DNA of 64,000 nucleotides, taken from the NCBI GenBank assembly GCA_963733815.1, contig CAVTEG010000009.1, forward strand, positions 115,580 to 179,579, in the 5' to 3' direction. This document shows positions 1 through 16,104 of the stretch, one piece after another. The notes under the pieces are model-generated. The model had not been told where the DNA came from. It saw only the letters and a list, made by a program, of their open reading frames with translations, and did not search any database. Both the position numbers and the translations under genes were made by a program. This DNA comes from an uncultured Acidobacteriota bacterium. GTDB taxonomy: Bacteria; Acidobacteriota; Thermoanaerobaculia; UBA5066; Gp7-AA6. Numbering within the stretch: the first letter of the stretch is position 1; the number at the start of each line of letters is the position of its first letter.

Positions 1-139
1 AGGCGCGATCGTCGATTCGGTAGAAGCGGAATCCGGGCGTTGAAAGCTCGACGCCCGTGACGGGCGGCGCACCCGGAGCCGGCGCGAGTGTGGTCGCCGC
101 GCCGGCCGCGCCCGCGAGCAGGATCAGAGCCAGCAGCAT
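1..139 (-). CDS. exported protein, N-terminal fragment (gene runs off left edge)
   Basis: ATG at 139 (minus) with GAGGGA 8 nt upstream. Translation MLLALILLAGAAGAATTLAPAPGAPPVTGVELSTPGFRFYRIDDRA is signal-peptide-like and open to base 1. Below the ORF-track size cut-off. Confidence 0.4.
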   Translation of the reverse strand, partial: MLLALILLAGAAGAATTLAPAPGAPPVTGVELSTPGFRFYRIDDRA

Positions 140-231
140 CGGCAATGTCCCTCGGTCCTGCGAGGACCGGGCTGAAGTCTCCGCCCCGGAAACTGGCCCG
201 TCAAGCCCGGGCCTGCGATAAGTTAGGCGGC

Positions 232-999
232 GTGAAACGCTTGGTGGACCTGACCGTCGACGACCTCGTCGCGCATCCGGTGTGGCGCTACGAGGGAGGT
301 GTGGGTCGGGACGCAATCGTCGTTCCCGCGACAAAGACCACGCTCTCGCGCAGTGACGACGAGATCTTCCTGGCGGGGAGCGACTTCGAGCTCTTCGACA
401 CGACGAAGCACTTCGGGTTCTGCTTTCCGGCCGACGACACGGGCATCGCGTATCTGCAGCCGGTCATCCTGACGCGCTCGGGTCCGGTGAGCTTCTGGTT
501 CGATGAGTCGCCCTCGAAGGAGAAGCTTTCGAAGCAGTGGAGGCTCCTCGGGAAGGACGAGGCCGAGATCTTTCCGGCGACCTTTCGCTGCCGCGTCCTC
601 GTCGACGGCCGGATCATCACGGGCCGAATCACCAGCGTCGAGTCGGCGGAACCCTTGCCGAAGGGAGCTTCGGAAGAACCGCGCCGCGTCGGGATCGGCA
701 CGGGAGAGAAGCGCACGTCCCGGCGGCGTCCTGCCGAGATGGCGGTCGAGTTCACGCAGGACACCCTCTACGGAACGGGTGTGACGAGCGACATCTCGCG
801 GCGCGGCATGTTCGTGCGCACGACACGCACTCCGGGAACCGGCCCGATCGTGCGCCTGACGGTGCACCTGCCGGAAGGACGCAAGCTGTTCCTCACGGGA
901 AAGGTCGTCCGAAGTCAGAGGACGGGCCCCGGGTTCGGACTCCGGCTTTCCGGCGAGTGGCCGAACTTCGAGGATCTCTTCCCGCGGCGGCGGAAGTAG
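232..999 (+). CDS. PilZ domain protein (c-di-GMP receptor family) with uncharacterised N-terminal domain
   Basis: ORF 88..999; likely GTG start at 232. C-terminus RTSRRRPAEMAVEF...GVTSDISRRGMFV...LTGKVV carries the RxxxR and D-x-S-x-x-G PilZ signatures. Confidence 0.6.
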   Translation: MKRLVDLTVDDLVAHPVWRYEGGVGRDAIVVPATKTTLSRSDDEIFLAGSDFELFDTTKHFGFCFPADDTGIAYLQPVILTRSGPVSFWFDESPSKEKLSKQWRLLGKDEAEIFPATFRCRVLVDGRIITGRITSVESAEPLPKGASEEPRRVGIGTGEKRTSRRRPAEMAVEFTQDTLYGTGVTSDISRRGMFVRTTRTPGTGPIVRLTVHLPEGRKLFLTGKVVRSQRTGPGFGLRLSGEWPNFEDLFPRRRK

Positions 1000-1134
1000 C
1001 CTCGCCCGACGGCGTTTCGCGATCTTCTTCGTCGATTCTCTGAGCTTTGCGCGAGCTCGCGCGCATGCAAGTCCACTGCCGGCACTCATGTTGCACGCTT
1101 TTTCCAGCCGCGTCGCCGGGATCGGAATGGGGAA

Positions 1135-1161
1135 TGTCGATCTCGGCCCTCGCCGTTCGTC
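1135..1161 (+). promoter_or_regulatory. ECF-type promoter candidate P1 (TGTCGAT-N14-TTCGTC)
   Basis: TGTCGATCTCGGCCCTCGCCGTTCGTC. Intergenic, 41 nt upstream of the ATG at 1202. Same bipartite motif as at 5750, 7247 and 11650. Confidence 0.55.
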
Positions 1162-1201
1162 AATCCAGTGTGGGGACGATCATCCAACTCGAGGAGGCCA
1201 G

Positions 1202-1582
1202 ATGCTGACTGATGGAAAAGTACACACCATGCTGCCGGTCAAAGACTTGAAGGAGGCCGAGAGGTTCTACGGAGGGATCCTGGGGCTTCGTAAGGTCCAC
1301 GAGGAGAACGGCGGGGCCGTCACCTATGAAAGCGGCGGCGCGACGGTCGTGGTTTACGTCTCCCAGTACGCGGGCACGAACAAGGGCACCGCCGCGTCCT
1401 GGAGCGTGAAGGACGTCGAGAAGGAAGTGAAGGAGCTCAAGGGAAAGGGAGTGTCCTTCGAGCACTACGACGACCTTCCGGAAACGACGCGGAAGGGGGA
1501 TACGCACTTCGCCGGTCCCATGAAGTTGGCCTGGTTCAAGGATCCGACGGGAAACATCCTGGGACTCGAGAGCCGGGCGTAA
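1202..1582 (+). CDS. VOC / glyoxalase-bleomycin resistance family protein
   Basis: ATG 1202 after GAGGAGG. MLPVKDLKEAERFYGGILGL...KLAWFKDPTGNILGL is a typical VOC fold pattern. Confidence 0.75.
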   Translation: MLTDGKVHTMLPVKDLKEAERFYGGILGLRKVHEENGGAVTYESGGATVVVYVSQYAGTNKGTAASWSVKDVEKEVKELKGKGVSFEHYDDLPETTRKGDTHFAGPMKLAWFKDPTGNILGLESRA

Positions 1583-1636
1583 CCCGGACGCTTCGAGCAC
1601 GTTCTCGGAATCTGCAGGAACAAGGAGAGCCGACGT

Positions 1637-2143
1637 ATGTCCGTAAGAAGCCCAAGAAGAAGGACCGCCGCCCTCCGGGACCGGCGCGAGCTCGTCGTCG
1701 AGCGCACGCTCGATGCGCCGCGCGACATCCTTTTTCGCGCCTGGACCGATCCCGCGCTCGTGGCGCGGTGGTGGGGCCCGAGAGGATTCACCAACCCCGT
1801 CTGCGAGATCGACGCGCGAGAGACCGGAGCCATCCGCATCGATATGCGCGGTCCGGACGGCACGATCTATCCGATGGCCGGCGTCTTCGGAGAAATCGTC
1901 GTTCCGGAAAAGCTCGTCTTCCTGAGCGCGGCGCTGAACGATGACGGCCATCCGCTGTTCGAGACCGAGAACGTCGTGAGGTTCGTCGAGCGGCAGGGGA
2001 AGACTTCCGTCCGTATGGTCGTTCGCCTGGCCTGGTGGTGGCCTGAGGCCCCTCCGTATCTGGGCGGGATGGAGGAAGGATGGGAGCAGAGCCTGGAGCG
2101 CCTTGCCCAAGTCGTCGCGGACGCGGATCCGGAGAGAGCGTGA
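1637..2143 (+). CDS. SRPBCC family protein (AHSA1/START-like)
   Basis: ELVVERTLDAPRDILFRAWTDPALVARWWGPRGF...GPDGTIYPMAGVFGEIVVPEKLVF is the Aha1-like SRPBCC pattern. Confidence 0.75.
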   Translation: MSVRSPRRRTAALRDRRELVVERTLDAPRDILFRAWTDPALVARWWGPRGFTNPVCEIDARETGAIRIDMRGPDGTIYPMAGVFGEIVVPEKLVFLSAALNDDGHPLFETENVVRFVERQGKTSVRMVVRLAWWWPEAPPYLGGMEEGWEQSLERLAQVVADADPERA

Positions 2144-2607
2144 AGGCCCGCGAGACGGCGGCTCCTGAGGTTTCCGACAACGAGATCGTCGCCAGCCGGG
2201 CCTTCGAATCGCCGAGGCCTCGGGCCTATCGCGCGTGGATCGATCCGGACAGGGTCGGAAAGTGGTGGGGACCCGCGGGCTTTACGATCACGACGCACGA
2301 GATCGATGTCCGTCCGGGAGGCGTCTGGCGGTTCACCATGCACGGTCCCGACGGCGTCGACTACCAGAACAAGATCCTCTACGTCGAGATTGCGGAGCCC
2401 GACCGCCTGGTCTACGACCACGTCTCGGGTCCGCGCTTCCACGCGGTCGTCACCTTTGGAGACGAGCCGGTCGGCCGGACGCGGGTCACGGTCCGCATGG
2501 TTTTCGAATCGGCCGCCGAGCGCGATCGGGTCGCCGAGAAGTTCCGCGCCGTAGAAGGACTCGGCCAGACGCTGGAGCGGCTCGGCGAGCACGTGGCGCT
2601 GCGGTGA
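2140..2607 (+). CDS. SRPBCC family protein (AHSA1/START-like), tandem paralog
   Basis: GTG 2140 overlaps the upstream TGA (GTGA). IVASRAFESPRPRAYRAWIDPDRVGKWWGPAGF...MHGPDGVDYQNKILYVEIAEPDRLVY. Confidence 0.7.
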   Translation: MKARETAAPEVSDNEIVASRAFESPRPRAYRAWIDPDRVGKWWGPAGFTITTHEIDVRPGGVWRFTMHGPDGVDYQNKILYVEIAEPDRLVYDHVSGPRFHAVVTFGDEPVGRTRVTVRMVFESAAERDRVAEKFRAVEGLGQTLERLGEHVALR

Positions 2608-2635
2608 AGTCTCGCCGGGACCGGCGGCGCCGGAG

Positions 2636-3115
2636 TTACCGCTTCCGGGTGCGAGCCCGAGTGCGCGCGGCCTTCTTCGCGGCCCGGGAACGCGCCGCGG
2701 CGCCGCGCCGCCGAGCGCTCGACCGAGCCTGCCGCGCCAGCGCCACCTTCGAGGCCGCCGACCGGCCTTCCCGTCGAAGCGCCTTTTTCGTGGCGCTCGA
2801 TCTCTTCGGGGAAACCTTGGAAACCCCTCTTTTCCCGCGCGTCCGGTCGCGCGCCGCGGATTTGCGCGTGGTCGCCGAGACCGTTCCCTCCTTCGGGGGT
2901 GGAAGCGCCACTCCCGAGCGGCGCGCCTTGGAGAGTCCGATGGCAATCGCCTGTTTCGTCGACCGGGCGCCGTGCTTGCCCTCTCGCACGTGGTGCATCT
3001 CTTCACGAACGAACTCGCCGGCCTGCGTCGTCGGAGATTTCCCTTCTCTCGCGTCCTCGTTCGCGGCCGCGAGGGCTTCTTCGTCCGTGTCGGGGTGCTT
3101 TTGACGTTCCGCCAT
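2636..3115 (-). CDS. small basic protein (DUF6496-like N-terminus, Lys/Arg/Ala-rich tail)
   Basis: ATG 3115 after GAGGAG. TQAGEFVREEMHHVREGKHGARSTKQAIAIGLSKARRSGV is followed by a histone-H1-like basic tail. The family name is from memory. Confidence 0.55.
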   Translation of the reverse strand: MAERQKHPDTDEEALAAANEDAREGKSPTTQAGEFVREEMHHVREGKHGARSTKQAIAIGLSKARRSGVALPPPKEGTVSATTRKSAARDRTRGKRGVSKVSPKRSSATKKALRREGRSAASKVALARQARSSARRRGAAARSRAAKKAARTRARTRKR

Positions 3116-3264
3116 AGTGTTCTCCTCGAAATCCTGCGGCCGCAAGAAGCTTGCCAGCTTCCGAACAGCGGAACGGCGCCGCACTTCGATCGGTTTGCCC
3201 GGGCCTTCGTAGTACTTTGCGTCGGCTCTGGAATCCCGAGGAGGAAGATGAGACGGGCCCCTCG

Positions 3265-4737
3265 ATGACCAATGTCCCGGATCCCGGCGCGGTCATGGGC
3301 GCGGACGGTGTGCCGGTAGGAGAAGGAGCCGTCGCCGCGTCCGCCGCGATCCCGGCGCCGGCGGCGCCGGGTCGAAAGACGTTCGATCGATCGCTCGTCG
3401 AGGGGCCGATCGGACCGGCCGTATGGAAGATCGCCTGGCCGACGATGCTCCAGAACGTCATCGCGGGCCTCCAGGGGATCATCGACCACGCGATGGTCGG
3501 CCACTTCGTGGGCTACACCGCCAACGCGGCGATCGGCGTCTCGTGGCAGATCGTGATCGTGGTCATCGTGTTCGCGAGCTCGGTGTTCAGCGGGATGGGC
3601 GTGCTCGTGGCGCGGTTCGCGGGCGCGAACCAGCCGCATCGGGTCAACCGGGTCGTCTACCAGTCGTTCCTGACGGCGGCGGGCCTCTCGATCCTCCTCG
3701 GATCGCTCGGTTGGCTCGCTGCGCCGAGCCTTCTCGACCTCGTCAACGCGGCGCCCGCCGTCCGTGCGCAGGCGATGCCGTTTCTGCGGGCGATGCTCGT
3801 CGGAATCCTCGGCATGATGATTTTCTTCATGTTGAGCGGCGCTTTCCGCGCCGCGGGAGACGCGCGCACGCCGCTGCGGCTGGGCCTCCTGATGACCGGG
3901 CTGACGATCGTCTTCAACGTGATCCTGATTCCGATCTACGGCACGCTCGGGGCCGCGCTGGGCACGATCGCGAGCAGCACGATCGTGTCGGCGTACGGCC
4001 TGTGGCGCCTGACCCGCCCGGAGTCGGTGATCCACTTCGAGCCGGGCATGCACAAGGCGCCGGACCTGGCGATCATCCGGGAGCTGTTCCGCTTCGGTCT
4101 TCCCACCGGGGTCCAGGGGATCGCGATGAACGTCGCCGGCGTGCTGCTTCTGCGTTTCATCGGTTCTCTCCCGCAGAGCGCCGCGGCCCAGGCGGCCTTC
4201 GCCGTCGGCTACACGGAGCTCTTCTCGCTGATCACCTGGACGTCGGTCGGCCTGATGGGCGCCACGGCGGCGATCGCCGGCCAGAATCTGGGAGCGGGAC
4301 GGCCCGACCGCGTGATCGAGGGCGTTTGGGTCGCGTCGCGGATCGGTCTGGGCGCGGCGGTGGTCGTCGGCGCGCTGTTCCTGGCGGTGCCGAGGCTCCT
4401 TCTGGCCGTCTTCGGGATGAAGGATCCGGTGGTGCTCGGCCTGGGTGTGCAGCTGCTGCGGTTTCTGTCGCTCTCCGGGCTTTTCATCACCGTGGCCCTG
4501 TGTTTTACGGGCGCTCTGCAGGGCACCGGAGACACGCGGAGCCCGCTCTACATCTCGATCGTGTCGCAGATCGTGGTGCCCCTGGGCCTCTGCGTGCTCC
4601 TCCAGGGGACGCGCGGACTGACGCCGGCCGGCATCTGGACGGCGATCGTTCTGGGCCACATGACGCGGTGCGTGCTCTCGGTGGCCCGGTTCCGGATGCA
4701 GAGGTGGCGGGGGATCGAGGTGGCGATCCCGTCGTGA
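3265..4737 (+). CDS. MATE family efflux transporter
   Basis: ORF 3151..4737; likely ATG at 3265. IAWPTMLQNVIAGLQGIIDHAMVGHFVG and 12 TM-like hydrophobic segments. Confidence 0.8.
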   Translation: MTNVPDPGAVMGADGVPVGEGAVAASAAIPAPAAPGRKTFDRSLVEGPIGPAVWKIAWPTMLQNVIAGLQGIIDHAMVGHFVGYTANAAIGVSWQIVIVVIVFASSVFSGMGVLVARFAGANQPHRVNRVVYQSFLTAAGLSILLGSLGWLAAPSLLDLVNAAPAVRAQAMPFLRAMLVGILGMMIFFMLSGAFRAAGDARTPLRLGLLMTGLTIVFNVILIPIYGTLGAALGTIASSTIVSAYGLWRLTRPESVIHFEPGMHKAPDLAIIRELFRFGLPTGVQGIAMNVAGVLLLRFIGSLPQSAAAQAAFAVGYTELFSLITWTSVGLMGATAAIAGQNLGAGRPDRVIEGVWVASRIGLGAAVVVGALFLAVPRLLLAVFGMKDPVVLGLGVQLLRFLSLSGLFITVALCFTGALQGTGDTRSPLYISIVSQIVVPLGLCVLLQGTRGLTPAGIWTAIVLGHMTRCVLSVARFRMQRWRGIEVAIPS

Positions 4738-4772
4738 TGCGGCGGAAGGGATGATCACGCCTCATCGGCGAC

Positions 4773-4803
4773 TGGTCATGTCATTTCCGGCGTAAGTGGT
4801 CAT
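4773..4803 (+). repeat. direct repeat TGGTCAT-N17-TGGTCAT (copy A of a duplicated upstream segment)
   Basis: TGGTCATGTCATTTCCGGCGTAAGTGGTCATTG. Compare with 7174..7204. Confidence 0.5.
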
Positions 4804-4861
4804 TGCACGCCGCCGCTCTCCAAGAGAGGCTTTCGCGAGCCGGACGCGAAGAGGACGTTCG

Positions 4862-5677
4862 GTGACCGGGCGGCTTTCTCGCCTCGGCCTGGAGTTGCTC
4901 GTGCTTTCTCTCGTGGGTTCGAAGTTGGCATCCGGACAGCAGGGGAACGCAGCCGGTAACACTTGCTGCCCCGTCGTGGAGCTCCGGCAGTACACCCTTC
5001 ACCCGGGGCAGCGCGACGTCCTGATCGATCTGTTCGACCGTGAGTTCGTCGAGACCCAGGAGGCCGAGGGGATGCGAGTCATCGGCCAGTTCCGCGACCT
5101 CGACAACCCGAACCGATTCGTGTGGCTTCGGGGATTCGCCGACATGCCGGGACGCGCGCGATCGCTGGGAGCTTTCTATGGGGGCCCCACGTGGAAAACG
5201 CACAAAAATGCTGCGAACGCGACGATGATCGACTCCGACAACGTCCTGCTGCTCAAGCCGGCGCGGCCGGCATCCGAGTTCTCGGTGGAGAAGCTCCGAC
5301 GTCCTGCGCCCGGCGCGACCCAAGTGCCGAAGACACTCGTGGTCGCCACGATCTACTACCTCGATGCGCCTCCGGATGAAGCCTTCCTGGATTCATTCGA
5401 GCGCGAGGTCCTTCCCGGCTTTCGGTCCGCGGGCGCTTCCATGATCGGTTGGTTCGTGACCGAAAGCAGCCCCAACACGTTTCCTGCGCTTCCCGTTCGA
5501 GAGGGGGAGCACGTGATGGCCTTCTTCTCGTTATTTGGGGACCGGGCGGCGTACGAGAAGTATCTCGGTGTGCTGGAGCGTTCCGGTGGCACGCCGAAGG
5601 CCCTGTCGAGCCGGCTCAAACGCCCTCCCGAGACCCTTCGGCTGTCGCCCACATCCCGCTCGCTTCTTGGGAGTTGA
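4862..5677 (+). CDS. NIPSNAP family protein (two NIPSNAP repeats), signal peptide
   Basis: ORF 4796..5677; GTG 4862 after AGAGGA gives VTGRLSRLGLELLVLSLVGSKLASG. VVELRQYTLHPGQRDVLIDLFDREFVETQEAEGMRVIGQFRDLDNPNRFVWLRGF. Confidence 0.7.
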   Translation: MTGRLSRLGLELLVLSLVGSKLASGQQGNAAGNTCCPVVELRQYTLHPGQRDVLIDLFDREFVETQEAEGMRVIGQFRDLDNPNRFVWLRGFADMPGRARSLGAFYGGPTWKTHKNAANATMIDSDNVLLLKPARPASEFSVEKLRRPAPGATQVPKTLVVATIYYLDAPPDEAFLDSFEREVLPGFRSAGASMIGWFVTESSPNTFPALPVREGEHVMAFFSLFGDRAAYEKYLGVLERSGGTPKALSSRLKRPPETLRLSPTSRSLLGS

Positions 5678-5685
5678 CGCCCGGC

Positions 5686-5728
5686 GGGCGCGCGGGCGCG
5701 CGGGCGCGCGGGCGGGCGGGCGGACGGG
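5686..5728 (+). repeat. G-tract / (GGGCGCGC)x3 low-complexity repeat
   Basis: Seven GGG runs in 43 nt: GGGCGCGCGGGCGCGCGGGCGCGCGGGCGGGCGGGCGGACGGG. Lies between the NIPSNAP stop and promoter candidate P2. Confidence 0.8.
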
Positions 5729-5749
5729 CGGTTATAGGCTCGTTTTCTT

Positions 5750-5776
5750 TGTCGATCCCGCGGCAACCCGTTCGTC
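5750..5776 (+). promoter_or_regulatory. ECF-type promoter candidate P2 (TGTCGAT-N14-TTCGTC)
   Basis: TGTCGATCCCGCGGCAACCCGTTCGTC, 80 nt upstream of the ATG at 5856. Confidence 0.55.
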
Positions 5777-5855
5777 GCCCGGGTAGAGCCAGGGTTCGAA
5801 CCGGTCGAATCCGCCCGGGGCCCGGCTCGGGACGTACAGAAAAGGAGACAGTCCG

Positions 5856-6281
5856 ATGAAAGTCATGGTGTTGATCAAGGCCAACGAGAAGTCCGAGGCC
5901 GGCATCCTGCCGAGCGAGAAGCTCTTCACCGAGATGATGGCCTTCAACGAGAGGCTCGTGAAGGCTGGCGTGATGCTGGCCGGAGAGGGCCTCCACGCGA
6001 GCTCGAAGGGCAAGCGGGTTCGCTTCCACAACGGAAGAGTGACGGTCGTCGACGGCCCCTTCGCGGAAACCAAGGAGCTACTGGCTGGTTTCTGGATGTG
6101 GAACGTGGGCTCCCTGGAGGAAGCGGTCGAGTGGGCCAAGCAGATCCCCAATCCCGACGACGAGACCGACGGCGAGATCGAGATCCGTCCGGTCTTCGAG
6201 GTCGGCGGCTGTGCGGACATTCCCGAAGACATGCGCGAGAAGGAAGAGCGCCTGCGCGCAGAGATCGTCCGAAAGATCTAA
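5856..6281 (+). CDS. YciI-like / DGPF domain protein (paralog 1)
   Basis: RBS AAGGAGA. MKVMVLIKANE...VTVVDGPFAETKELLAGFWMWNVGSLEEAVEWAK...EIEIRPVFE contains the DGPF-x-E-x-KE motif. Confidence 0.8.
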   Translation: MKVMVLIKANEKSEAGILPSEKLFTEMMAFNERLVKAGVMLAGEGLHASSKGKRVRFHNGRVTVVDGPFAETKELLAGFWMWNVGSLEEAVEWAKQIPNPDDETDGEIEIRPVFEVGGCADIPEDMREKEERLRAEIVRKI

Positions 6282-7130
6282 TCGCCGCGACGTTCCGAGA
6301 GCCGGGCCTCGAGGGCGCGCACTCGAGGCTCGAGCTTCGGATCATTGATCCTCCCGGCCTCTTCGGCGAAGGACGCCGTCGTCCCCCGCCAGCGCAGCGC
6401 CTCAACGTCGTCGAAAAGCGGCGCGTCGACTCGGAGGGTCGCGAGATGTTTGAAGAGCAGCGCCGCTTCGCGGCGAGGACCGAGGGCCTCGGGAGGGGAG
6501 TCCTCGAGCCGGCCCCAACGCTCGATGAACCGCGCCGCCGTCTTCGGGCCGATAACCGTCGATGCCCGGATATCCGTCGGCGGCATCTCCGACGAGCGCG
6601 AGGTAGTCCGGGAATCGCACCGGCGTCACGCCGAACTTCGCGCTCACCGCCGTCGGCGTTTCGGATCTTGCCGCTCTTGCGGTCGACCTGCACGACGCGA
6701 TCGCCGACGACGCACTGCGCCAGGTCCTTGTCGGGCGTCCAGATGCAGACCTTCTCGACGCGCGGGTCCTCCGCCGCCAGACGCGCCGCCGAGGCGAGCG
6801 CGTCGTCGGCTTCGAGCTCGACCATCGGCCCACACCGACGACGCCCATGGCGGTCAGCGCGTCCTCGAGCGGATGGAACTGCCTCCAGAGCGCCGGCTCG
6901 ATGCCCTCGCCGGTCTTGTAGCCCGCGCCAGAGGTCGTTGCGAAACGATTCGATGACGTGGTCGGTCGCGACGCCGATGTGCGTCGCTCCGCCCTCCAGC
7001 ATCTGCAGCGACCGTGTGCAGGACGCCGACCACGGCGCCGAACGGCGGGTCCGTCGCCATTGCTGAAGCGCCGGAGCCCGTAGAAGTGGCGGAAGAGCTC
7101 GTACGTGCCGTCGACGAGGTGAACGATCAT
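6278..7130 (-). pseudogene. 5'-3' exonuclease / flap endonuclease (Pol I N-terminal domain family), reading frame broken at least 4 times
   Basis: These conserved pieces lie in three minus-strand frames (ORFs 6402..7130, 5944..7161, 6278..6586): MIVHLVDGTYELFRHFYG (start 7130); GATHIGVATDHVIESFRNDLW; AGYKTGEGIEPALWRQFHPLEDAL; WPMVELEADDALASAARLAAEDPRVEKVCIWTPDKDLAQCVVGDRVVQVDR; KFGVTPVRFPDYLALVGDAADGYPGI; IGPKTAARFIERWGRLED. Confidence 0.75.
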
Positions 7131-7173
7131 GCGCGCGGCCCGACGATATCGGACCGCTCACCGGAGCGCCGAG

Positions 7174-7204
7174 TGGTCACATCGGCTTTCGCGAAAGTGG
7201 TCAT
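7174..7204 (+). repeat. direct repeat TGGTCAC-N17-TGGTCAT (copy B)
   Basis: TGGTCACATCGGCTTTCGCGAAAGTGGTCATTG, 43 nt upstream of P3. Same 24-nt register as 4773..4803. Confidence 0.5.
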
Positions 7205-7246
7205 TGAGCGAAGCTCAAGCCGAAGGAAGTCTTTCTTACGGACCCG

Positions 7247-7273
7247 TGTCGATTTCGGGTCCCGTCATTCGTC
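7247..7273 (+). promoter_or_regulatory. ECF-type promoter candidate P3 (TGTCGAT-N14-TTCGTC)
   Basis: TGTCGATTTCGGGTCCCGTCATTCGTC, 73 nt upstream of the ATG at 7346. Confidence 0.55.
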
Positions 7274-7345
7274 GTCCTGATAGAGGCAGGGATTGGCGGT
7301 GGATCGGAGCCGGCGTCCCCCTCACAAACGAAAGGAGATACGTCG

Positions 7346-7720
7346 ATGCGATTCCTCACGATGGTCAAGTCGAAGGAGCCCTGGGGACAGCCGCCGCAGG
7401 CGCTGATGGACGCCATTGCCAAGCTCGGCGCCGAGTCGTTCCAATCCGGGAAGATGGTCGAGACCGGAGGTCTCGCGCCGAGCGCGTTGGGCGCGAAGGT
7501 CCGGCTGGAAAACGGAAAGGTCACCGTCACCGACGGGCCGTTCTCCGAAGCCAAGGAAGTCATCGGCGGCTACGCGATCTTCGAGCTTCCCTCGAAGAAG
7601 GAAGCGATCGAAGAGACGGTCAAGTTCATGCAGCTCCACAAGGACCACTGGCCGGGCTGGGAGGGCGAGACCGAGGTCCGGCCGATGTTCACGATGCCGG
7701 GCCCCGGCCAGAAGTCCTGA
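7346..7720 (+). CDS. YciI-like / DGPF domain protein (paralog 2)
   Basis: RBS AAGGAGA. MRFLTMVKSKE...KVTVTDGPFSEAKEVIGGYAIFELPSKKEAIEETVKF...ETEVRPMF. Confidence 0.8.
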   Translation: MRFLTMVKSKEPWGQPPQALMDAIAKLGAESFQSGKMVETGGLAPSALGAKVRLENGKVTVTDGPFSEAKEVIGGYAIFELPSKKEAIEETVKFMQLHKDHWPGWEGETEVRPMFTMPGPGQKS

Positions 7721-7742
7721 CGGAGGGGCGGAGGAGGACGCC

Positions 7743-8129
7743 ATGAAGAAGCGAATCTGGGCGGGCCGCGTTCTCAGCGGGTTGGGGGTGGCATTTCTGG
7801 TCTTCGACATCGTCATCAAGTTCACGGGCGCGGCGCCGGTCGTCGAAGCGATGGAGCGGCTGGGATATCCGGTGCGGATGGCGCCGGTAATCGCAATCAT
7901 AGAGATTCCGTGCCTCATCTTCTATCTGATACCCCGCACGTCCGTCCTCGGCGCGCTGCTGTGGACGGCCTTTCTCGGCGGAGCCACGGCGAGCCAGGTT
8001 CGCATCGGCGAGCCGCTCTTCAGCCACATCCTGTTCCCGACCTACGTCGCGCTGTTGCTGTGGGGCGGACTCTGGCTTCGCAACGACCGCCTGCGCGCGC
8101 TCGTTCCCGTGACGCGCCCGCAGGCCTGA
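7743..8129 (+). CDS. DoxX-like integral membrane protein
   Basis: ATG 7743 after GGAGGAGGA. Four hydrophobic segments: MKKRIWAGRVLSGLGVAFLVFDIVIKF...LGALLWTAFLGGATASQVRIGEPLFSHILFPTYVALLLWGGLWLR. Confidence 0.65.
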   Translation: MKKRIWAGRVLSGLGVAFLVFDIVIKFTGAAPVVEAMERLGYPVRMAPVIAIIEIPCLIFYLIPRTSVLGALLWTAFLGGATASQVRIGEPLFSHILFPTYVALLLWGGLWLRNDRLRALVPVTRPQA

Positions 8130-8155
8130 CCCGATATGTCCAAGGAGAACGAACG

Positions 8156-8590
8156 ATGCGATTCATGATGCTGATGATTCCCCGAGGGCTACGAGAAGGC
8201 CGAGCCCGGCGCGATGCCGGATCGCCAAGGCCGTGGAGGCGATGATGAAGTACAACGAGTCGCTGCAGAAGGCCGGGGTGCTGCTGGCGCTCGACGGACT
8301 GCACCCGCCGTCGATGGGCGCGCGGGTCTCTTTCCGCGGAGGAAAGCCCAAGGTCACCGACGGGCCCTTCGCCGAGGCGAAGGAAGTGCTCGGCGGGTAC
8401 TGGATGATCCAGGTGAAGTCGCAAGGAAGAGGCGATCGAGTGGGCCAAGCGCTGCCCGGCCTCCGACAACGAGATGATCGAGATCCGCCAGGTGCAGGAG
8501 ATGGCCGATTTTCCGCCGGACGTGCAGGAGGCGGCGGCGGGATTCAGGGAGCTGCAGGACGCGCCGGACAGCAGGCGCAGCCTGACCTGA
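8156..8590 (+). pseudogene. YciI-like / DGPF domain protein (paralog 3), three +1 frame changes
   Basis: MRFMMLMIPRG is in the frame of ORF 7910. YEKAEPGAMPD is in the frame of ORF 8214. AKAVEAMMKYNESLQKAGVLLALDGLHPPSMGARVSFRGGKPKVTDGPFAEAKEVLGGYWMIQVKS is ORF 8233. KEEAIEWAKRCPASDNEMIEIRQVQEMADFPPDVQEAAAGF... runs to the TGA at 8588. The first shift is at a GGG run near 8186. Confidence 0.75.
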
Positions 8591-8698
8591 GGCGATTCGA
8601 AGCGAGTCGCGATTGGCGCATGACCGCCGATCGCCGGAGACCGTCTTCGCTCTCGTCGGGCGCGTCGAGCGCTCTGACAGATGTTCTGATCGGTAGGC

Positions 8699-9993
8699 GT
8701 GGCGGCTTCCGAGACGCATCGCGCCATCGAGGCAGTCTGGAGGATCGAGTCGGCCCGGTCTGATCGCGGGCCTGGCGCGAATGGTCCGCGACGTGGGCTT
8801 GGCGGAGGATCTGGCGCAGGACGCGCTCGTGGCGGCGCTGGAGCAGTGGCCCGAGACCGGCGTTCCCGACAACCCGGGCGCCTGGCTGATGGCCACCGCG
8901 AAGCACCGGGCGATCGACCTGCTGCGCCGCGACAAGCTCGCTGAAGCGCAAGCACGAGGAGCTCGGCCGCGAAATCGAGGGCCGGCAGGACGCGGCCGTG
9001 GACGACCTGGACGCCGCGATCGACGACGCCGTGGGCGACGATCTGCTGCGGCTGATCTTCATCGCCTGCCATCCGGTGCTCTCGGCCGAGGCGCGCGTGG
9101 CGCTGACACTGCGTCTGCTCGGTGGCCTGACGACCGAGGAGATCGCGCGGGCGTTTCTCGTTCCGGAGCCGACGATCGCTCAGCGCATCGTGCGGGCGAA
9201 GCGCACACTCGCGGATGCGCGCGTTCCCTTCGAGGTGCCGCGCGGCAGCCGAACTGGCGGCGCGCGCTGGCCTCGGTGCTGGAGGTGATCTACCTGATCT
9301 TCAACGAGGGATACACCGCGACCGCCGGCGAGGACTGGATGCGGCCGGCGCTCTGCGAGGACGCGCTTCGCCTCGGCCGCGTCCTGGCGGAGCTCGCTCC
9401 GGACGAGGCGGAGGTCCACGGTCTCGTGGCCCTGATGGAGATCCAGGCTTCGCGCGCGCGCGCGCGCACCGGGGCCTCGGGCGAGCCGATGCTGCTGCTG
9501 GAGCAGGATCGCGCGCGCTGGGACCACGTGCTCATCCGCCGCGGGCTCGCGGCTCTGGAGCGCGCCCAGAGCCATCGGCGGCGAACGCGGTCCGTACGTT
9601 CTGCAGGCCGCGATCGCGGCGTGCCACGCGCGGGCGCGGATCGCGGAGGAGACCGACTGGGCGCGTATCGCCGAGCTTTACGAGGAGCTCTTCCGGGAGG
9701 CTCCGTCTCCCGTCGTGGAGCTCAACCGCGCGGTCGCCGTCGGAATGGCGTCGGGACCGGCCGCCGGCCTCGCGCTCGCCGACCGGCTGGTGTCGGAGCC
9801 CTGGCTGGAGGAGTATCACCTGCTGCCGGCCGTGCGCGGCGAATTCCTCGAGAAGCTCGGCCGCTACGAGGAGGCGCGCGCCGAGTTCGAGCGCGCGGCT
9901 GCGATGACGCGAAACACCCGCGAACGGGAGCTTCTCGCCGGGCGCGCCGCCGCGTGCGCGGGCGGGTCGGCCGGATCCCCGCCGCAGTCCTAG
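8699..9993 (+). pseudogene. ECF sigma factor with long C-terminal extension (COG4941 / ECF42-type), reading frame broken at least 5 times
   Basis: Pieces in order: HRAIEAVWRIESAR (ORF 8699); LIAGLARMVRDVGLAEDLAQDALVAALEQWP...GAWLMATAKHRAIDLLRR (ORF 8781); LLRLIFIACHPVLSAEARVALTLRLLGGLTTEEIARAFLVPEPTIAQRIVRAKRTL (ORF 8998); VLEVIYLIFNEGYTATAGEDWMRPALCEDALRLGRVLAEL... (frame of 8781 again); AIAACHARARIAEETDWARIAELY...HLLPAVRGEFLEKLGRYEEARAEFERA (ORF 9715). Each resolved shift is one extra base. Confidence 0.8.
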
Positions 9994-10032
9994 GTTCTCG
10001 TGAATGCCTGATCGGCGGCGGCTCGAAGGAGA

Positions 10033-11607
10033 GTGTTCGCGGTGACCGAGAATCGGGTGGCAACGCGGCGCGAGTGGATCGGCCTGGGAGTGATTGCGTT
10101 CCCGTGCCTCCTCTACTCGATGGACCTGAGCGTCTTGAACCTGGCCGTTCCGGCCCTGAGCCGGGACCTGCGCCCGAGCGCCTCGCAGCTGCTCTGGATC
10201 ATCGACATCTACGGCTTTCTCGTGGCCGGATCGCTGATCACGATGGGCACGCTGGGCGACCGGATCGGCCGGCGCAGGCTCCTCATGATCGGCGCCGCGG
10301 CGTTCGGGGTCACCTCCGTCATCGCCGCCTTCTCGCGGAGCGCCGAGATGCTGATCGCCGCCCGCGCCCTGCTCGGTCTGGCCGGGGCCACGCTCGCGCC
10401 CTCGACGCTATCGCTCATCCGCAACATGTTCCACGACCCGAGAGAGCGCACCGTCGCGATCTCCGTCTGGATCACCAGCTATTCGGTCGGCGGCGCGATC
10501 GGTCCGCTGCTGGGCGGCGTGATGCTCGAGCACTTCTGGTGGGGCTCGGTGTTCCTGCTGGCGGTCCCGGTGATGGTCCTGCTGCTCGCCGTCGGGCCAA
10601 GACTCCTGCCCGAGTTCCGCGACGAGAGCGCGGGCCGGCTCGACCTGGTGAGCGCGGGGATGTCCCTCTCGAGCGTGCTGCTGGTCATCTACGGCCTGAA
10701 GAAGATCGCCGAGGATGGATGGGCGTTGATGCCAGCAGCGGCGATCGCCGCGGGAATCGCGATCGGCGTCGTGTTCGTGCGAAGACAGCGCGGGCTCGCG
10801 GATCCGCTGATCGATCTCGATCTCTTTCGCTCGCCGGCCATCGCCGGGGCGCTGGTGACCTACACGCTCTCTCTGTTCGTGGCGTTCGCGGCGTGGATCT
10901 TCATCGCCCAGTACCTGCAACTGGTGCTCGGATTGACACCCCTGCAGGCCGGCCTCTGGACCCTGCCCTGGTCTCTCGGATTCGTGGCGGGATCGTTGTG
11001 GACGCCGAAGCTCGTGCGCCGCTATCCGCGGCAGCTCGTCATGGCGGCCGGCATGGTCATGGCCTCCGCCGGATTCGTCGTGTTGACGAGAGTCGGCGCG
11101 AGCTCGGGGCTCGGCGCGATGGTGACGGCGTCGGTCCTCTTCTCAGTGGGTCTGGGTCCCGCGGTCACGCTGGTGACGGACATCGTGCTGGGCGCCGCGC
11201 CTCCGGAGAGGGCGGGAGCTGCCTCGGCGCTCTCCGAGACAAGCGCGGAACTCGGAGGCGCCCTGGGGATCGCGATCCTCGGAAGCGTCGGGGTCGCGGT
11301 CTATCGTGGTGCGATGGCCCTCGCGGTTCCATCCGGCGTTCCGCCGGAGGCCGCAGTGACGGCTCGGAGCACGCTCGGCGGCGCCGTAGCGGCGGCCGCG
11401 AAGCTTCCCGAGGCGGTCGCAGCGCCGCTGCTTTCGTCCGCGCGCGAGGCTTTCACGGTCGGATTCCAGCGCGCGTCGTGGATCAGCGCCGTCGTCTGCG
11501 CCGGGCTTGCCATCCTCGTGTGGCGACTCTTGCCGGAGGAGACGGCCAGCGAGAAATCCGGGGAGCGGTCGGACGAAGAGGCCCGAAAGGCGTCCTCCGG
11601 TACTTAG
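10033..11607 (+). CDS. MFS transporter, DHA2 (14-TMS EmrB/QacA-like) family
   Basis: LNLAVPALSRDLRPSASQLLWIIDIYGFLVAGSLITMGTLGDRIGRRRLLMIGAAAFG...LGLAGATLAPSTLSLI. 524 aa, many TM segments. Confidence 0.8.
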   Translation: MFAVTENRVATRREWIGLGVIAFPCLLYSMDLSVLNLAVPALSRDLRPSASQLLWIIDIYGFLVAGSLITMGTLGDRIGRRRLLMIGAAAFGVTSVIAAFSRSAEMLIAARALLGLAGATLAPSTLSLIRNMFHDPRERTVAISVWITSYSVGGAIGPLLGGVMLEHFWWGSVFLLAVPVMVLLLAVGPRLLPEFRDESAGRLDLVSAGMSLSSVLLVIYGLKKIAEDGWALMPAAAIAAGIAIGVVFVRRQRGLADPLIDLDLFRSPAIAGALVTYTLSLFVAFAAWIFIAQYLQLVLGLTPLQAGLWTLPWSLGFVAGSLWTPKLVRRYPRQLVMAAGMVMASAGFVVLTRVGASSGLGAMVTASVLFSVGLGPAVTLVTDIVLGAAPPERAGAASALSETSAELGGALGIAILGSVGVAVYRGAMALAVPSGVPPEAAVTARSTLGGAVAAAAKLPEAVAAPLLSSAREAFTVGFQRASWISAVVCAGLAILVWRLLPEETASEKSGERSDEEARKASSGT

Positions 11608-11649
11608 AGCCCGACCTCGGGCCGACCGATCGGTTTCCGGCGCCCCGGA

Positions 11650-11676
11650 TGTCGATCCCCGCGTCCGTCGTTCGAC
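11650..11676 (+). promoter_or_regulatory. ECF-type promoter candidate P4 (TGTCGAT-N14-TTCGAC variant)
   Basis: TGTCGATCCCCGCGTCCGTCGTTCGAC. Intergenic, 208 nt upstream of the RND adaptor ATG at 11884. Confidence 0.45.
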
Positions 11677-11836
11677 TCCTTAAGTGGACGTAAAAAAGAT
11701 GGTTGGAAACCGGAACGTCGCGCCGCCGTACGGGTTTGAGGAGACGCGCCGATGTGACACACTCGGAGTCTCTCCGGCCGTCCCCTCGCGGAATCCCGGA
11801 ATCCGAGGGGCGCTTGGCGGCTTATTTAGCGAAATG

Positions 11837-11860
11837 AGGGGTTACCCCTTTTCCCGTTTT
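11837..11860 (+). terminator. terminator/attenuator-like hairpin in the RND operon leader
   Basis: AGGGG-TTA-CCCCT followed by TTTTCCCGTTTT, 24 nt before the ATG at 11884. Confidence 0.4.
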
Positions 11861-11883
11861 CCGGCGTGGGAGGACTTTCGGGC

Positions 11884-13025
11884 ATGAAAAAGCGGATGTT
11901 CCTGATGCTGACCGCGGCGGCCGTCTTCATTACGGCCATCGGCGCGGTCAAGTACGGGCAGATCAAGAAGGGCATGGCTCAGCACGCGGCCTTCAAGATG
12001 CCGCCCGAGGCCGTCACGACCGTGATCGCGAAGCCGGTCGACTGGCCGGCCACGCTGTCCTCGATCGGCTCCGTGGCCGCCGTTCGCGGCGTCGTCGTGA
12101 GCTCGGACCTCCCGGGCATCGTCGAGAAGATCGCGTTCGAGTCTGGGAAAGCGGTCCGCGAAGGCGACCTGCTCGTCCAGCTCGACACACGGCAGGAGCA
12201 GGCGCAGCTGGCGGCCGCGCGGGCGCAGAACGACCTGGCGAAGGTCAGCCTCGACCGCCTCACGGGCCTGCGCCAGAAAGGCATCGCAGCGCCAGGCGGA
12301 GTGCGGACAACGCCGACGCCGTCCGGAAGCAGGCCGAGGCGCGGATCGGCGAGATCCAGGCGACGATCGCGCGCAAGACCATCCGCGCGCCGTTCTCGGG
12401 CGATGCTCGGAATCCGGCAGGTGAACCTCGGCCAGTACCTGCACGAGCGGCAGTCCGATCGTGCCGCTGCAGGCGCTCGACCCGATCTACGTCAACTTCT
12501 CGGTGCCGCAGCAGGAGGCGGCGCTCCTGACGCCCGGCGACACGGTGCGTGTTGCGGCCGAGGGCGCCAAGCGCGAGGCGACGGGCAAGGTCACCGCGGT
12601 CAACTCGGTGATCGACGACGGCACCCGCAACGTCCAGATCCAGGCGACGTTTGCCAATCGCGACGGCAGGCTGAAGCCCGGGCATGTTCGTGACGACGTC
12701 ACGTCGCGCTCGGCACGGCGTCGAAGCGTCATCCCGCTGCCCGCGGCGGCCGATCAACTACGCGCCGTACGGCGATTCGGTCTACGTGGTCGAGACGATG
12801 AAGAGACCCGAAGGGCGAGACCGGACTACAAGGGCGTGCGCCAGCAGTTCGTCAAGCTCGGGCCCCGGCGAGGGCGACCAGGTCGCGGATGCTCTCGGGG
12901 GTCAAGCCCGGCGAGGAGGTCGTCACGTCCGGCGTGTTCAAGCTGCGCCCGGGCGCGGCCGTCCAGGTCAACAATTCGACGACCACCCGTCGAACAATCC
13001 GGCGCCCAAGCCCGAGGACAGCTAG
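11884..13025 (+). pseudogene. efflux RND transporter periplasmic adaptor (membrane fusion protein, HlyD family), about 10 frame changes
   Basis: Intact N-terminal third: MKKRMFLMLTAAAVFITAIGAV...GIVEKIAFESGKAVREGDLLVQLDTRQEQAQLAAARAQ. From about 12290 to 12900 the conserved pieces DNADAVRKQAEARIGEIQATIARKTIRAPFSG, MLGIRQVNLGQYL, PLQALDPIYVNFSVPQQEAALLTPGDTVRV, INYAPYGDSVYVVETMK, GVRQQFVKLGPRRG and VLSGVKPGEEVVTSGVFKLRPGAAVQVNN alternate between all three frames. Confidence 0.75.
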
Positions 13026-13027
13026 AC

Positions 13028-16000
13028 ATGAAGTTCACGGACATCTTCATCCGGCGACCGGTCCTCGCGATCGTCGTCAACCTCGTGATCCTGATCGCCG
13101 GACTGCAGTCGATCCGGTCGCTCTCCGTCCGCCAGTACCCGCGCAGCGACATCGCGGTCGTGACGGTGACGACCGTGTACGTCGGCGCCAACGCGGACCT
13201 CGTGCGCGGCTTCATCACCACGCCGCTCGAGCGCGTCATCGCCAGCGCCGACGGCATCGACTACATGGAGTCGTCGAGCGCGCAGGGCGTTCAGCACGAT
13301 CACCGTCCACCTCAAGCTCAACTACGACACGAACGCCGCGCTCACGCAGATCCAGGCCAAGGTGGCCCAGGTGCGCAACGACCTGCCGCCGGAGGCCGAA
13401 GCCCCGATCATCGAGCTCGCGACGGCGGACACCGAGTTCGCGTCGATGTATCTCGGCTTCTCTTCCGACGAGCTCGACCAGAACCAGATCACCGATTATC
13501 TCGATCCGCGTCGTCCAGCCCAAGCTGTCGGCCGTCTCGGGCGTCCAGCGCGCCGACATTCTCGGCGGCCGCACGTTCGCCATGCGCGTCTGGCTCAAGC
13601 CCGAGAAGATGGCGGCCCTCGGCATCGCGCCCAACGACGTCCGCACCGCGCTTTCCGAGAACAACTATCTCTCGGCCATCGGCCAGACCAAGGGCTCGAT
13701 GACGTCGGTCAACCTGGTGGCCAACACGGACCTGAGGACCGCGCAGGAGTTCCGCCAGCTCGTCGTGAAGGAGAAAGACGGCGTCGTGGTGCGGCTGGGC
13801 GAGATCGCGGACGTCGTCCTCGGCGCCGAGAACTACGACTCCGAAGTCCGGTTCAACGGCCAGACTGCCACTTTCATGGGCATCTGGGTGCTGCCGAACG
13901 CGAACTCGCTCGACGTCATCAAGCGCGTGCGCAGGGAATTGCCGGACATCCAGGCCCAGCTGCCGGCGGGCATGAAGCTCGGCATCCCGTACGATTCGAC
14001 GGAGTACATCCAGGACGCGATCAACGAAGTGCTCTCGACGCTGACCGAGACGCTCTTGATCGTCATCGTCGTCATCTTCCTCTTCCTGGGCTCGTTCCGC
14101 GCCGTGCTTATCCCCATCGTCGCGATCCCGATCTCTCTGATCGGCGCTGTGTTCCTGATGCTCGCGTTCGGCTTTACGATCAACCTGCTGACCCTGCTCG
14201 CGATCGTTCTCTCCGTCGGTCTCGTCGTGGACGACGCGATCGTCATGGTGGAGAACGTGGAGCGGCACCTCGCCCTCGGCGAGAAACCCTTCCCGGCCGC
14301 GATGAAGGCGGCGCGCGAGCTCGTCGGACCGATCATCGCCATGACCATCACGCTGGCGGCGGTGTACGCGCCGATCGGCATCCAGGGAGGTCTGACCGGC
14401 GCTCTGTTCCGCGAGTTTGCCTTCACTCTCGCCGGCGCCGTGATCGTGTCCGGAATCGTGGCCCTGACGCTGTCGCCCATGATGGGCTCGAAACTCCTGA
14501 GAGAGGGCGCCGCCGAGAAGGGCTTCGCGGGCATGATCAATCGCCACTTCGAGCGGGTGCGCCGGCTCTACGGCCGTCTGCTCTCGAGCACGCTGCAGTA
14601 CCGGCCGGTGGTGTTCACGCTCTGGGTCATCGTCGTGGCTTTGATCCCGGTCTTCTACATGTTCTCGGCCAAGGAGCTGGCTCCCGTCGAGGACCAGGCG
14701 GTCGTCTTCGGCGTGATCCAGGCCGCGCCCAACGCGACGCTCGACCAGACGAGCCTCTTCACCGAGGAGGTCTTCAACGTCTACAACGCTTTTCCCGAGA
14801 AGAAGGCCGTCTTCCAGATCACGTCGCCGAGCGGCGGCTTCGGGGGCATGGTGACCAAGCCCTGGAGCGAACGCAAGAAGAGCACCCAGCAGCTCCAGGT
14901 CGAGGCGGCCATGGGAATGACGAAGATTCCCGGCATCCGCGTGATCACCCTAGTGCCGCCGGCTCTCCCGGGAGGCGGCAGCTTCCCGGTCGATTTTGTC
15001 GTCGCGTCGACGGCGGAGCCCGAACGGCTGACCGAGTTCGCCAACCAGCTCGTCGGCAAGGCGTACGCGAGCGGCATTTTCATGTATGCCGACTCGGACC
15101 TGAAGTTCGACCAGCCGCAGGCCGAGATCGTGTTCGACCGCGACAAACTGCGCGCGCAGGGCGTGGATCTGGGCCAGGTCGGCCGCGATCTCTCGACGAT
15201 GCTCGGCGGAAACTATGTGAATCGCTTCTCGATCCAGGGGCGAAGCTACAAGGTCATCCCGCAGGTCAAGCGCGCCGAGCGGCTCACGACGGACCAGCTT
15301 TCCAACATCTACGTCTCGGGCGCCGGCGGAAAGCTCGTGCCGCTCTCGACGTTCGCGACTCTGAAGACCTCGACGCAGCCGCGCGACCTGAAGCGCTTCC
15401 AGCAGTTGAACGCCGTCCGCATCCAGGGCGTTATTCCTCCGGGCGTTCCGCTCGACTCGGCGTTGAAGGTACTCGAGGTCGAGGCGGCGAAGATCCTGCC
15501 GAAGGGCTTCACCGTGGACTATGCCGGCGAGTCGCGGCAGCTGCGCACCGAGGGCAGCAAGTTCCTCTTCACGTTCCTGCTGTCGGCCATCCTGATCTAT
15601 CTGGTGCTCGCCGCCCAGTTCGAGAGTTTCCGCGATCCGTTCATCGTCCTCGCGGGATCCGTGCCGCTCGCGCTCTCCGGCGCTCTGCTGTTCTCGTTCC
15701 TCGGCGTGACGACGCTCAATATCTACAGTCAGGTCGGACTCATCACGCTCGTCGGGCTGATCGCGAAAAACGGAATCCTGATCGTCGAGTTCGCCAACAA
15801 GCTCCAGGAGACCGGCCTGCCGAAGCTCAAGGCGGTCGTCGAGGCGTCCGAGACGCGGCTGCGCCCAATCCTGATGACGACGGCCGCGACCGTCATGGGG
15901 CACATGCCCCTGGTTTTCGCCCGCGGTCCGGGAGCCGGGGCCCGCAACTCGATCGGCTTCATGCTCGTCACCGGCATGATCATCGGCACCACGTTCACTC

Positions 16001-16104
16001 TGTTCGTCGTGCCGTCGATCTACGTGCTCGTGGCCAAGACGCACAAGAAGATCGAGGCGGAAGTCGAGGCCGAGGTGCCGCAGCTCAAGGAAGCCGCGGT
16101 CTAA
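13028..16104 (+). pseudogene. efflux RND transporter permease (HAE1/AcrB-like), two +1 frame changes near the 5' end
   Basis: ATG 13028: MKFTDIFIRRPVLAIVVNLVILIAGLQSI. An extra base near 13292 shifts to STITVHLKLNYDTNAALTQIQAKVAQVRNDLP. An extra base near 13503 shifts to IRVVQPKLSAVSGVQRADILGG. The frame is then uninterrupted to 16104 (ORF 12889..16104) and includes VGLVVDDAIVMVENVERH. Confidence 0.85.

Follow-up and report, generated by a model that had tools for sequence, protein, structure and literature searches.

Four candidate ECF42-type promoters around a sigma factor gene in an acidobacterial contig

Four motif copies and the genes behind them

We analysed a 64,000-nt stretch of DNA from an uncultured soil bacterium of the Acidobacteriota (contig CAVTEG010000009.1 of assembly GCA_963733815.1, positions 115,580 to 179,579 of the forward strand; hereafter the window), in which four copies of a bipartite motif lie around a gene for an extracytoplasmic function (ECF) sigma factor resembling the ECF42 group. 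A first reading, made from the sequence alone (the sequence-only reading), had proposed these copies as a candidate promoter set of that sigma factor. Because the window is 68% G+C, genes were called by third-position G+C content together with Pfam. A pattern search for TGTCGAT-N14-TTCGWC gave four matches in the window, all on the + strand, at 1135, 5750, 7247 and 11650 (P1 to P4), against 0.03 expected, and the gene calls placed all four in intergenic DNA; both results agree with what the sequence-only reading had described.

Four or more strict matches were obtained in none of 100 dinucleotide-preserving shuffles of the window. The relaxed pattern TGTCGA-N17-CGWC, for which 0.95 matches are expected, recovered the identical four sites and no others. 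When the spacer was varied from N14 to N20, only N17 returned the four sites, the other lengths (N14-16 and N18-20) each giving 1-4 unrelated, background-like matches. All four sites fall within 11 kb around the sigma gene. The copies share two hexamer blocks only, with different spacers and flanks, and 14 of the 27 positions are invariant (1-7, 10, 20, 22-25 and 27), one fewer than the 15 counted earlier. From the end of the motif to the next + strand start codon there are 40, 79, 72 and 207 nt for P1, P2, P3 and P4, respectively; the start-codon distances of 41, 80, 73 and 208 nt given by the sequence-only reading are correct, and Pfam confirmed its list of the downstream genes.

P1 (1135..1161, +; -35 TGTCGAT, -10 TTCGTC) lies upstream of a VOC/glyoxalase gene (1202-1582), the first gene of target operon 1 (1202..2607), which continues with two SRPBCC/AHSA1 genes (1637-2143 and about 2140-2607); all three are on the + strand and were identified by Pfam. 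The order VOC-SRPBCC-SRPBCC is repeated in L167 and in L001, a metagenome contig that is syntenic with window positions 1600-10000 and in which all genes are intact. P2 (5750..5776, +) precedes DGPF/YCII paralog 1 (DGPF1; 5856..6281, +), a protein of 141 residues with the motif VVDGPF and a Pfam YCII match at E = 6e-21.

P3 (7247..7273, +) stands before a run of + strand genes: DGPF2 (YCII; 7346-7720), the small membrane protein DoxX_2 (7743-8129), DGPF3 (YCII; 8153-8590), all by Pfam, and the ECF42-type sigma factor (8699..9993). DGPF3 can be read through only with three +1 frame changes, and the sigma protein of 429-431 residues only across five. No terminator-like site was found between P3 and the sigma gene, and an exact-protein look-up of the window DGPF2 returned no record. 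A DHA2-type MFS efflux transporter gene (10033..11607, +; Pfam MFS_1) begins 40 nt past the sigma gene. It matches NCBIfam QepA/LfrA-like models, below their cut-offs, has its equivalent at the same place in L083 and on the P0003 contig, and may be the final gene transcribed from P3. P4 (11650..11676, +; -10 TTCGAC) is upstream of target operon 4 (11884..16104, +), which encodes an RND periplasmic adaptor and an AcrB-type pump (Pfam Biotin_lipoyl_2, HlyD_D23 and ACR_tran; NCBIfam RND_mfp). Adaptor and pump genes each carry at least one frame change in the assembly, ACR_tran being split over two frames.

The remaining genes of this part of the window encode a PilZ protein (88-999), a MATE transporter (3151-4737), a NIPSNAP protein (4796-5677) and, on the minus strand, a 5'-3' exonuclease (about 6278-7130). 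Relative to L001, the window is without a DoxX gene between MATE and NIPSNAP (L001 3518-3955; window about 4868) and without a DUF1428 gene between sigma and the MFS pump (L001 9145-9507; window about 9998), both being clean gene-sized differences among close relatives. No sigma-70-like promoter was found in 900-12100, and an Rfam scan of 1-13000 gave no match.

Some 40 nt upstream of P1, within TGCAAGTCCACTGCCGGCACTCATGTTGCAC, there is a sigma-54-type -24/-12 element, GGCAC-N5-TTGCA (1081-1095, +), the single match in the window (0.11 expected). Upstream of the VOC orthologues in L167, L168 and L171, the only conserved blocks are the ECF42 motif and this element. Since the element is unique in the window and conserved before the VOC orthologues, the VOC operon may have tandem sigma-54 and ECF42 promoters.

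Conservation of the motif

The motif was sought in 80 genome loci whose sigma factor is closely related to that of the window; they represent Acidobacteriota, Gemmatimonadota, Myxococcota, Actinomycetota, Paenibacillus, Proteobacteria, Chloroflexota and further groups. The strict form was found 47 times on the strand of the sigma gene and once on the opposite strand, against 0.2 expected; 41 of the 80 loci have the strict and 57 the relaxed form. Among the 101 DGPF genes of these loci, 58 have the motif no more than 260 nt upstream, mostly 24-120 nt before the gene, and most of the others stand second in an operon. The motif pointed towards the downstream gene in 65 cases and the opposite way in three. 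Further direct targets outside the window include three more glyoxalase genes and genes for DoxX, DoxX_2, alpha/beta hydrolases, DUF998 and DUF1801.

A scoring matrix was trained on the family sites, with the window and L001 excluded. It gave P3 38.1 bits, the maximum of the window, P2 30.4, P1 28.4 and P4 25.9 bits, while the next best site on either strand of the 64 kb scored 4.7. The family consensus is TGTCGAT-yyCG-...-CyCG-TTCG(A/T)C-GT-N4-GTAGAG, frequently with an A/T-rich tract in front of it, and runs past the -10 element as CGWC-G-T-N4-G-T-A-G-A-G; of the 65 sites in L002-L082, 62 have G28 and 56 have T35. The window counterparts of this extension are at 5777-5788, where P2 bears G(C)....GTAGAG, and at 7274-7285, where P3 bears GT....ATAGAG. 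That the family promoter reaches past the classic -35/-10 pair in this way (CGWC-GT-N4-GTAGAG) is a modest added point of the comparison.

The leaders past P2-type promoters are also alike across phyla, with the pattern GAGCC.GGGTTC...CCGG.CGAG...CCCGGCTC.CAAC (window 5783-5830; L001, L004, L024, L025, L030, L036 and L048). A hairpin in this leader (GAGCC.GGG...CCCGGCTC) was considered, for which RNAalifold found no consensus structure; in a hand-drawn two-helix model 75% of the cells were paired, as were 75% in shuffles, and there was no covariation above the shuffles. A leader RNA structure was therefore rejected as a supported feature, both approaches having given no covariation support, and the sequence conservation of the P2-type leaders stands.

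Loss of the motif from orthologous loci, which would have spoken against a promoter function, was not observed: the motif is kept at orthologues of all four sites. P2 is identical in L001 at 27 of 27 positions and P3 is conserved in L001 at 6313. The P1 motif recurs, with a different spacer, before the VOC orthologues of L167, L168/L169 and L171; in L168/L169 and L171 (79-80% identity) it reads TGTCGATTTCGGCGCC(G/C)GCCGTTCGAC and is followed by the start codon after 55 or 32 nt. In L163 and L170 the motif is followed by a DGPF gene and then VOC, and in L164-L166 VOC lies behind a one-mismatch variant of the motif, co-operonic with DGPF.

For P4, 80 metagenomic loci with an adaptor gene related to that of the RND operon were collected, 68 of which had enough upstream DNA. 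The motif precedes the adaptor gene in nine of the 68, against about 0.1 expected. The three closest orthologues, in L093 (92%), L088 (79%) and L083 (76%), have it 152-206 nt upstream, with invariant -35 and -10 blocks and a drifting spacer, and L083 has the gene order of the window, DGPF-sigma-MFS-motif-adaptor. In the six more distant loci it lies 18-121 nt upstream, on contigs without a sigma gene. The P4 leader itself (11677-11883) is nearly unchanged in L083 and L093, and L088 has a shorter, unrelated leader.

The sigma factor and its frame changes

Pfam found Sigma70_r2, Sigma70_r4_2 and DUF6596 in different frames of the window sigma gene, and an NCBIfam sigma70-ECF model matched above its cut-off. 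When the frames are stitched together, the protein shares 91% identity along its whole length with the intact 429-residue proteins P0001/P0002, which contain the same three Pfam domains. Regions 2 and 4 are the only core domains, both in the window frames and in the intact orthologue P0002. A C-terminal extension of ~250 residues follows region 4, with DUF6596 at E = 6e-36; the TPR part is only weakly seen, as a TPR_2 match at residues 378-401 of P0002 that is below the Pfam cut-off. The sigma gene has three YCII genes bearing the DGPF motif as neighbours (5856, 7346 and 8153), an arrangement shared with L001 and most of the 80 loci. No anti-sigma Pfam match was found among the sigma neighbours (DGPF, DoxX_2 and MFS), a missing match that does not prove absence. 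The published description of the ECF42 group has this architecture, DGPF neighbours and no recognisable anti-sigma gene (PMC6180224, PMC8999054, PMC7826278), and ECF42 factors are characterised as local regulators of small regulons (PMC7776599). Domain architecture and DGPF/YCII neighbours thus support membership of the sigma factor in ECF42, as the sequence-only reading had proposed.

A three-frame read of the assembly shows five +1 frame changes in the sigma gene and three in DGPF3. Alignment to L001 resolved 14 single-base insertions in the window: six in the exonuclease gene (6552-7055), three in DGPF3 (8189, 8224 and 8421) and five in sigma (8752, 8944, 9246, 9267 and 9565). None of the 14 merely lengthens a homopolymer run, and the alignment showed no single-base deletions and no stop codons in these three genes. 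The inserted letters are also missing from relatives' contigs in soil metagenomes; the DNA runs examined contain relatives only, at no more than 10% of sampled words. The insertion clusters coincide with segments that are common to many members of the soil community and have very high summed depth. Further frame changes affect the RND adaptor and pump at about 12290-13500.

Taken at face value, the frame changes in sigma and DGPF3 would make the local sigma gene a true pseudogene, the sites being of ECF42 type and either read by another ECF42 paralog or left as decaying orphans. Such paralogs are common in other bacteria, three being named in Streptomyces venezuelae (SVEN_0747, SVEN_4377 and SVEN_7131; PMC8999054). 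The pattern is, however, unlike natural decay: every lesion is an insertion and no other sign of decay accompanies them, and the stitched sigma protein keeps its full length and its identity to intact orthologues. The RND genes are frame-shifted as well, and all four promoters are perfectly preserved. The clustering of the insertions where many soil organisms share sequence fits mis-polishing. We therefore consider true loss of the sigma gene unlikely. Since there are insertions only, clustered in shared segments of genes otherwise free of decay, in a protein 91% identical to intact orthologues, the insertions are probably consensus or polishing errors of the metagenome-derived assembly, and in the living cell the sigma gene would be intact. 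"Pseudogene" calls in this genome accordingly need caution, as errors of the consensus are the most likely cause of the breaks in the sigma, DGPF3, exonuclease and RND genes.

A probable local ECF42 regulon and its relation to known systems

The closest experimental counterpart is RpoE10 (SMc01150), the ECF42 factor of Sinorhizobium meliloti. Its overexpression induces SMc01149-SMc01148 and SMb20475-SMb20474, whose products are glyoxalase-like and hydrophobic-ligand-binding proteins (Lang et al. 2018, PMC6180224). The mapped RpoE10 promoters, together with the motif before the YCII gene SMc01151, have the form TGTCGG-N17-CGTC, with TTCGTC in two of the three, and transcription starts 9 nt past CGTC (PMC6180224); the 17-nt spacers of the three published sequences were counted by hand. 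The -35/-10 geometry is thus equal to that of the window, TGTCGA-N17-CG(T/A)C, and the ECF42 promoter geometry that the sequence-only reading had given holds against promoters with mapped starts. The S. meliloti system also resembles the window in having a YCII/DGPF gene upstream of the sigma gene, in its glyoxalase-like (VOC) and hydrophobic-ligand-binding targets, which recall the P1 operon, and in its small, mostly local regulon. In contrast to S. meliloti, the window and most of the 80 loci have A as the sixth -35 base, followed by a conserved T, and the window has three DGPF paralogs, a sigma operon that includes DoxX_2, and a fourth promoter, which precedes an RND operon. Overexpression of RpoE10 drew no response from the S. 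meliloti DGPF-sigma operon, whereas in the window P3 is the strongest match.

We conclude, with a probability of roughly 0.88, that RNA polymerase bearing the ECF42-group sigma factor of 8699-9993 uses the four sites as promoters. This conclusion is built on the statistics of the motif, on its conservation across the family and at orthologues of each site, and on its agreement with published promoters; the proposal of a candidate promoter set for the neighbouring sigma factor thereby gains support from published geometry and from two kinds of conservation. Sigma dependence in this organism, the transcription starts and the operon extents are what we infer from this material. Region 4 of the sigma factor would contact the -35 element TGTCGAT and region 2 the -10 element (T)TCG(T/A)C, 17 nt past TGTCGA, and transcription would begin some 9 nt beyond the -10 element. 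The S. meliloti starts, taken as a model, put the predicted starts near 1170, 5785, 7282 and 11685 (about 11683-11686 for P4); in the family consensus the start so predicted is the A of GTAGAG. One relative's metatranscriptome contig begins at 5789, 4 nt past the predicted P2 start, and another contig from an RNA run spans the promoter; the four metatranscriptome runs, each with 3% of sampled words, provide relatives' contigs and do not resolve a start.

P1 would drive VOC and the two SRPBCC genes, P2 the solitary DGPF gene and P4 the RND efflux operon. P3 would drive DGPF2-DoxX-DGPF3-sigma, perhaps with the MFS pump, and transcription of sigma from P3 would lead to positive autoregulation, which is predicted because P3 is the strongest match. 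The four promoters would then serve a compact regulon at this locus, made up of genes for small enzymes, ligand binding and efflux. Several observations weigh against this interpretation. The sigma gene as assembled has five frame changes and, because of these, encodes no functional sigma factor as written; P1 and P4 are without the GT....GTAGAG extension that is present at most family sites; and the P4 leader, at 207 nt, is unusually long.

A different function for the motif would be that of an operator, bound by a dimeric transcription factor at the imperfect inverted repeat GTCGA-N15-TCGAC. Where the -10 element is CGAC, GTCGA and TCGAC are indeed reverse complements, and reverse-strand matrix matches at the same places slightly exceed background. 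The two halves, however, are not conserved alike: nothing on the right mirrors the left-hand T1, T3 and T7, position 26 is A or T, and G28/T29 are without a left counterpart. The 65 to 3 orientation bias and the promoter-like distances to start codons also argue against an operator, as does the S. meliloti motif, which precedes mapped starts and responds to RpoE10 (PMC6180224). We rejected the operator as very improbable on account of the asymmetry, the strand bias and the published sigma-dependent starts. A chance cluster, for which nothing speaks except that high G+C makes CG-rich words common, or copies of a mobile or repeat element, is a negligible prospect given the shuffles, the restriction of shared sequence to the two hexamer blocks, the gap in matrix scores and the conservation of the blocks across phyla in the 80 loci.

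With the sites taken as ECF42-type promoters, two further systems can be compared. The S. venezuelae ECF42 factors, which have DGPF target genes, are described in papers citing the original work (PMC8999054, PMC7776599) as having a C-terminal, TPR-containing extension of ~200 residues that is required for activity, conserved DGPF synteny, a small local regulon and no anti-sigma factor. The window sigma factor has a comparable extension, its TPR part being weakly seen, DGPF neighbours, a probable small local regulon and no recognisable anti-sigma neighbour. The window differs in coming from an acidobacterium and in having an RND operon among the targets. The ECF41 factors have a fused C-terminal regulatory domain, no anti-sigma factor and a local target, and their promoters, like the window sites, combine a GTC-containing -35 with a CGTC -10 element (S. 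meliloti RpoE9, TGTCACA...CGTC; PMC6180224). They differ in the -35 element (GTCACA against GTCGAT here), in the extension (SnoaL/NTF2-like against DUF6596/TPR) and in the neighbouring gene, which encodes a carboxymuconolactone decarboxylase or an oxidoreductase where the window has DGPF. The promoter predicted for ECF42 factors reportedly has TGTCGA at -35 and CGTC/CGAC at -10 (Staron et al. 2009; Liu, Pinto and Mascher 2018), which would match the window motif, and a link to efflux in Pseudomonas putida was reportedly described by Tettmann and colleagues in 2014.

The locus is a well-defined if unremarkable instance of a known system, the main point of note being the RND drug-efflux operon among the targets. 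ECF42 is among the most widespread ECF sigma groups, and to our knowledge neither its inducing signal nor the function of its DGPF partners is known. The locus offers a clean four-promoter regulon. The value added is modest and lies in the recurrence of the promoter before RND and VOC genes and in a consensus that extends downstream of the -10 element. The invariant G/T past the -10 element and the GTAGAG that follows could be a sigma-group-specific extra recognition element or an element of the initial transcript, conserved across phyla. In soil Acidobacteria and beyond, the same promoter would recurrently wire DGPF to VOC (glyoxalase/bleomycin-resistance-like) enzymes, SRPBCC ligand-binding proteins, DoxX membrane proteins, alpha/beta hydrolases and, at this locus and at least nine metagenomic adaptor loci, RND pumps. 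That the locus reveals the purpose of the ECF42/DGPF system as a dedicated response to hydrophobic toxicants or antibiotics, through detoxification and export, with G/T and GTAGAG as an extra promoter element, is a tentative idea that we consider less likely than not. The recurrence of ECF42-type promoters before RND adaptor and VOC genes in unrelated contigs suggests a role for this sigma group in detoxification and export.

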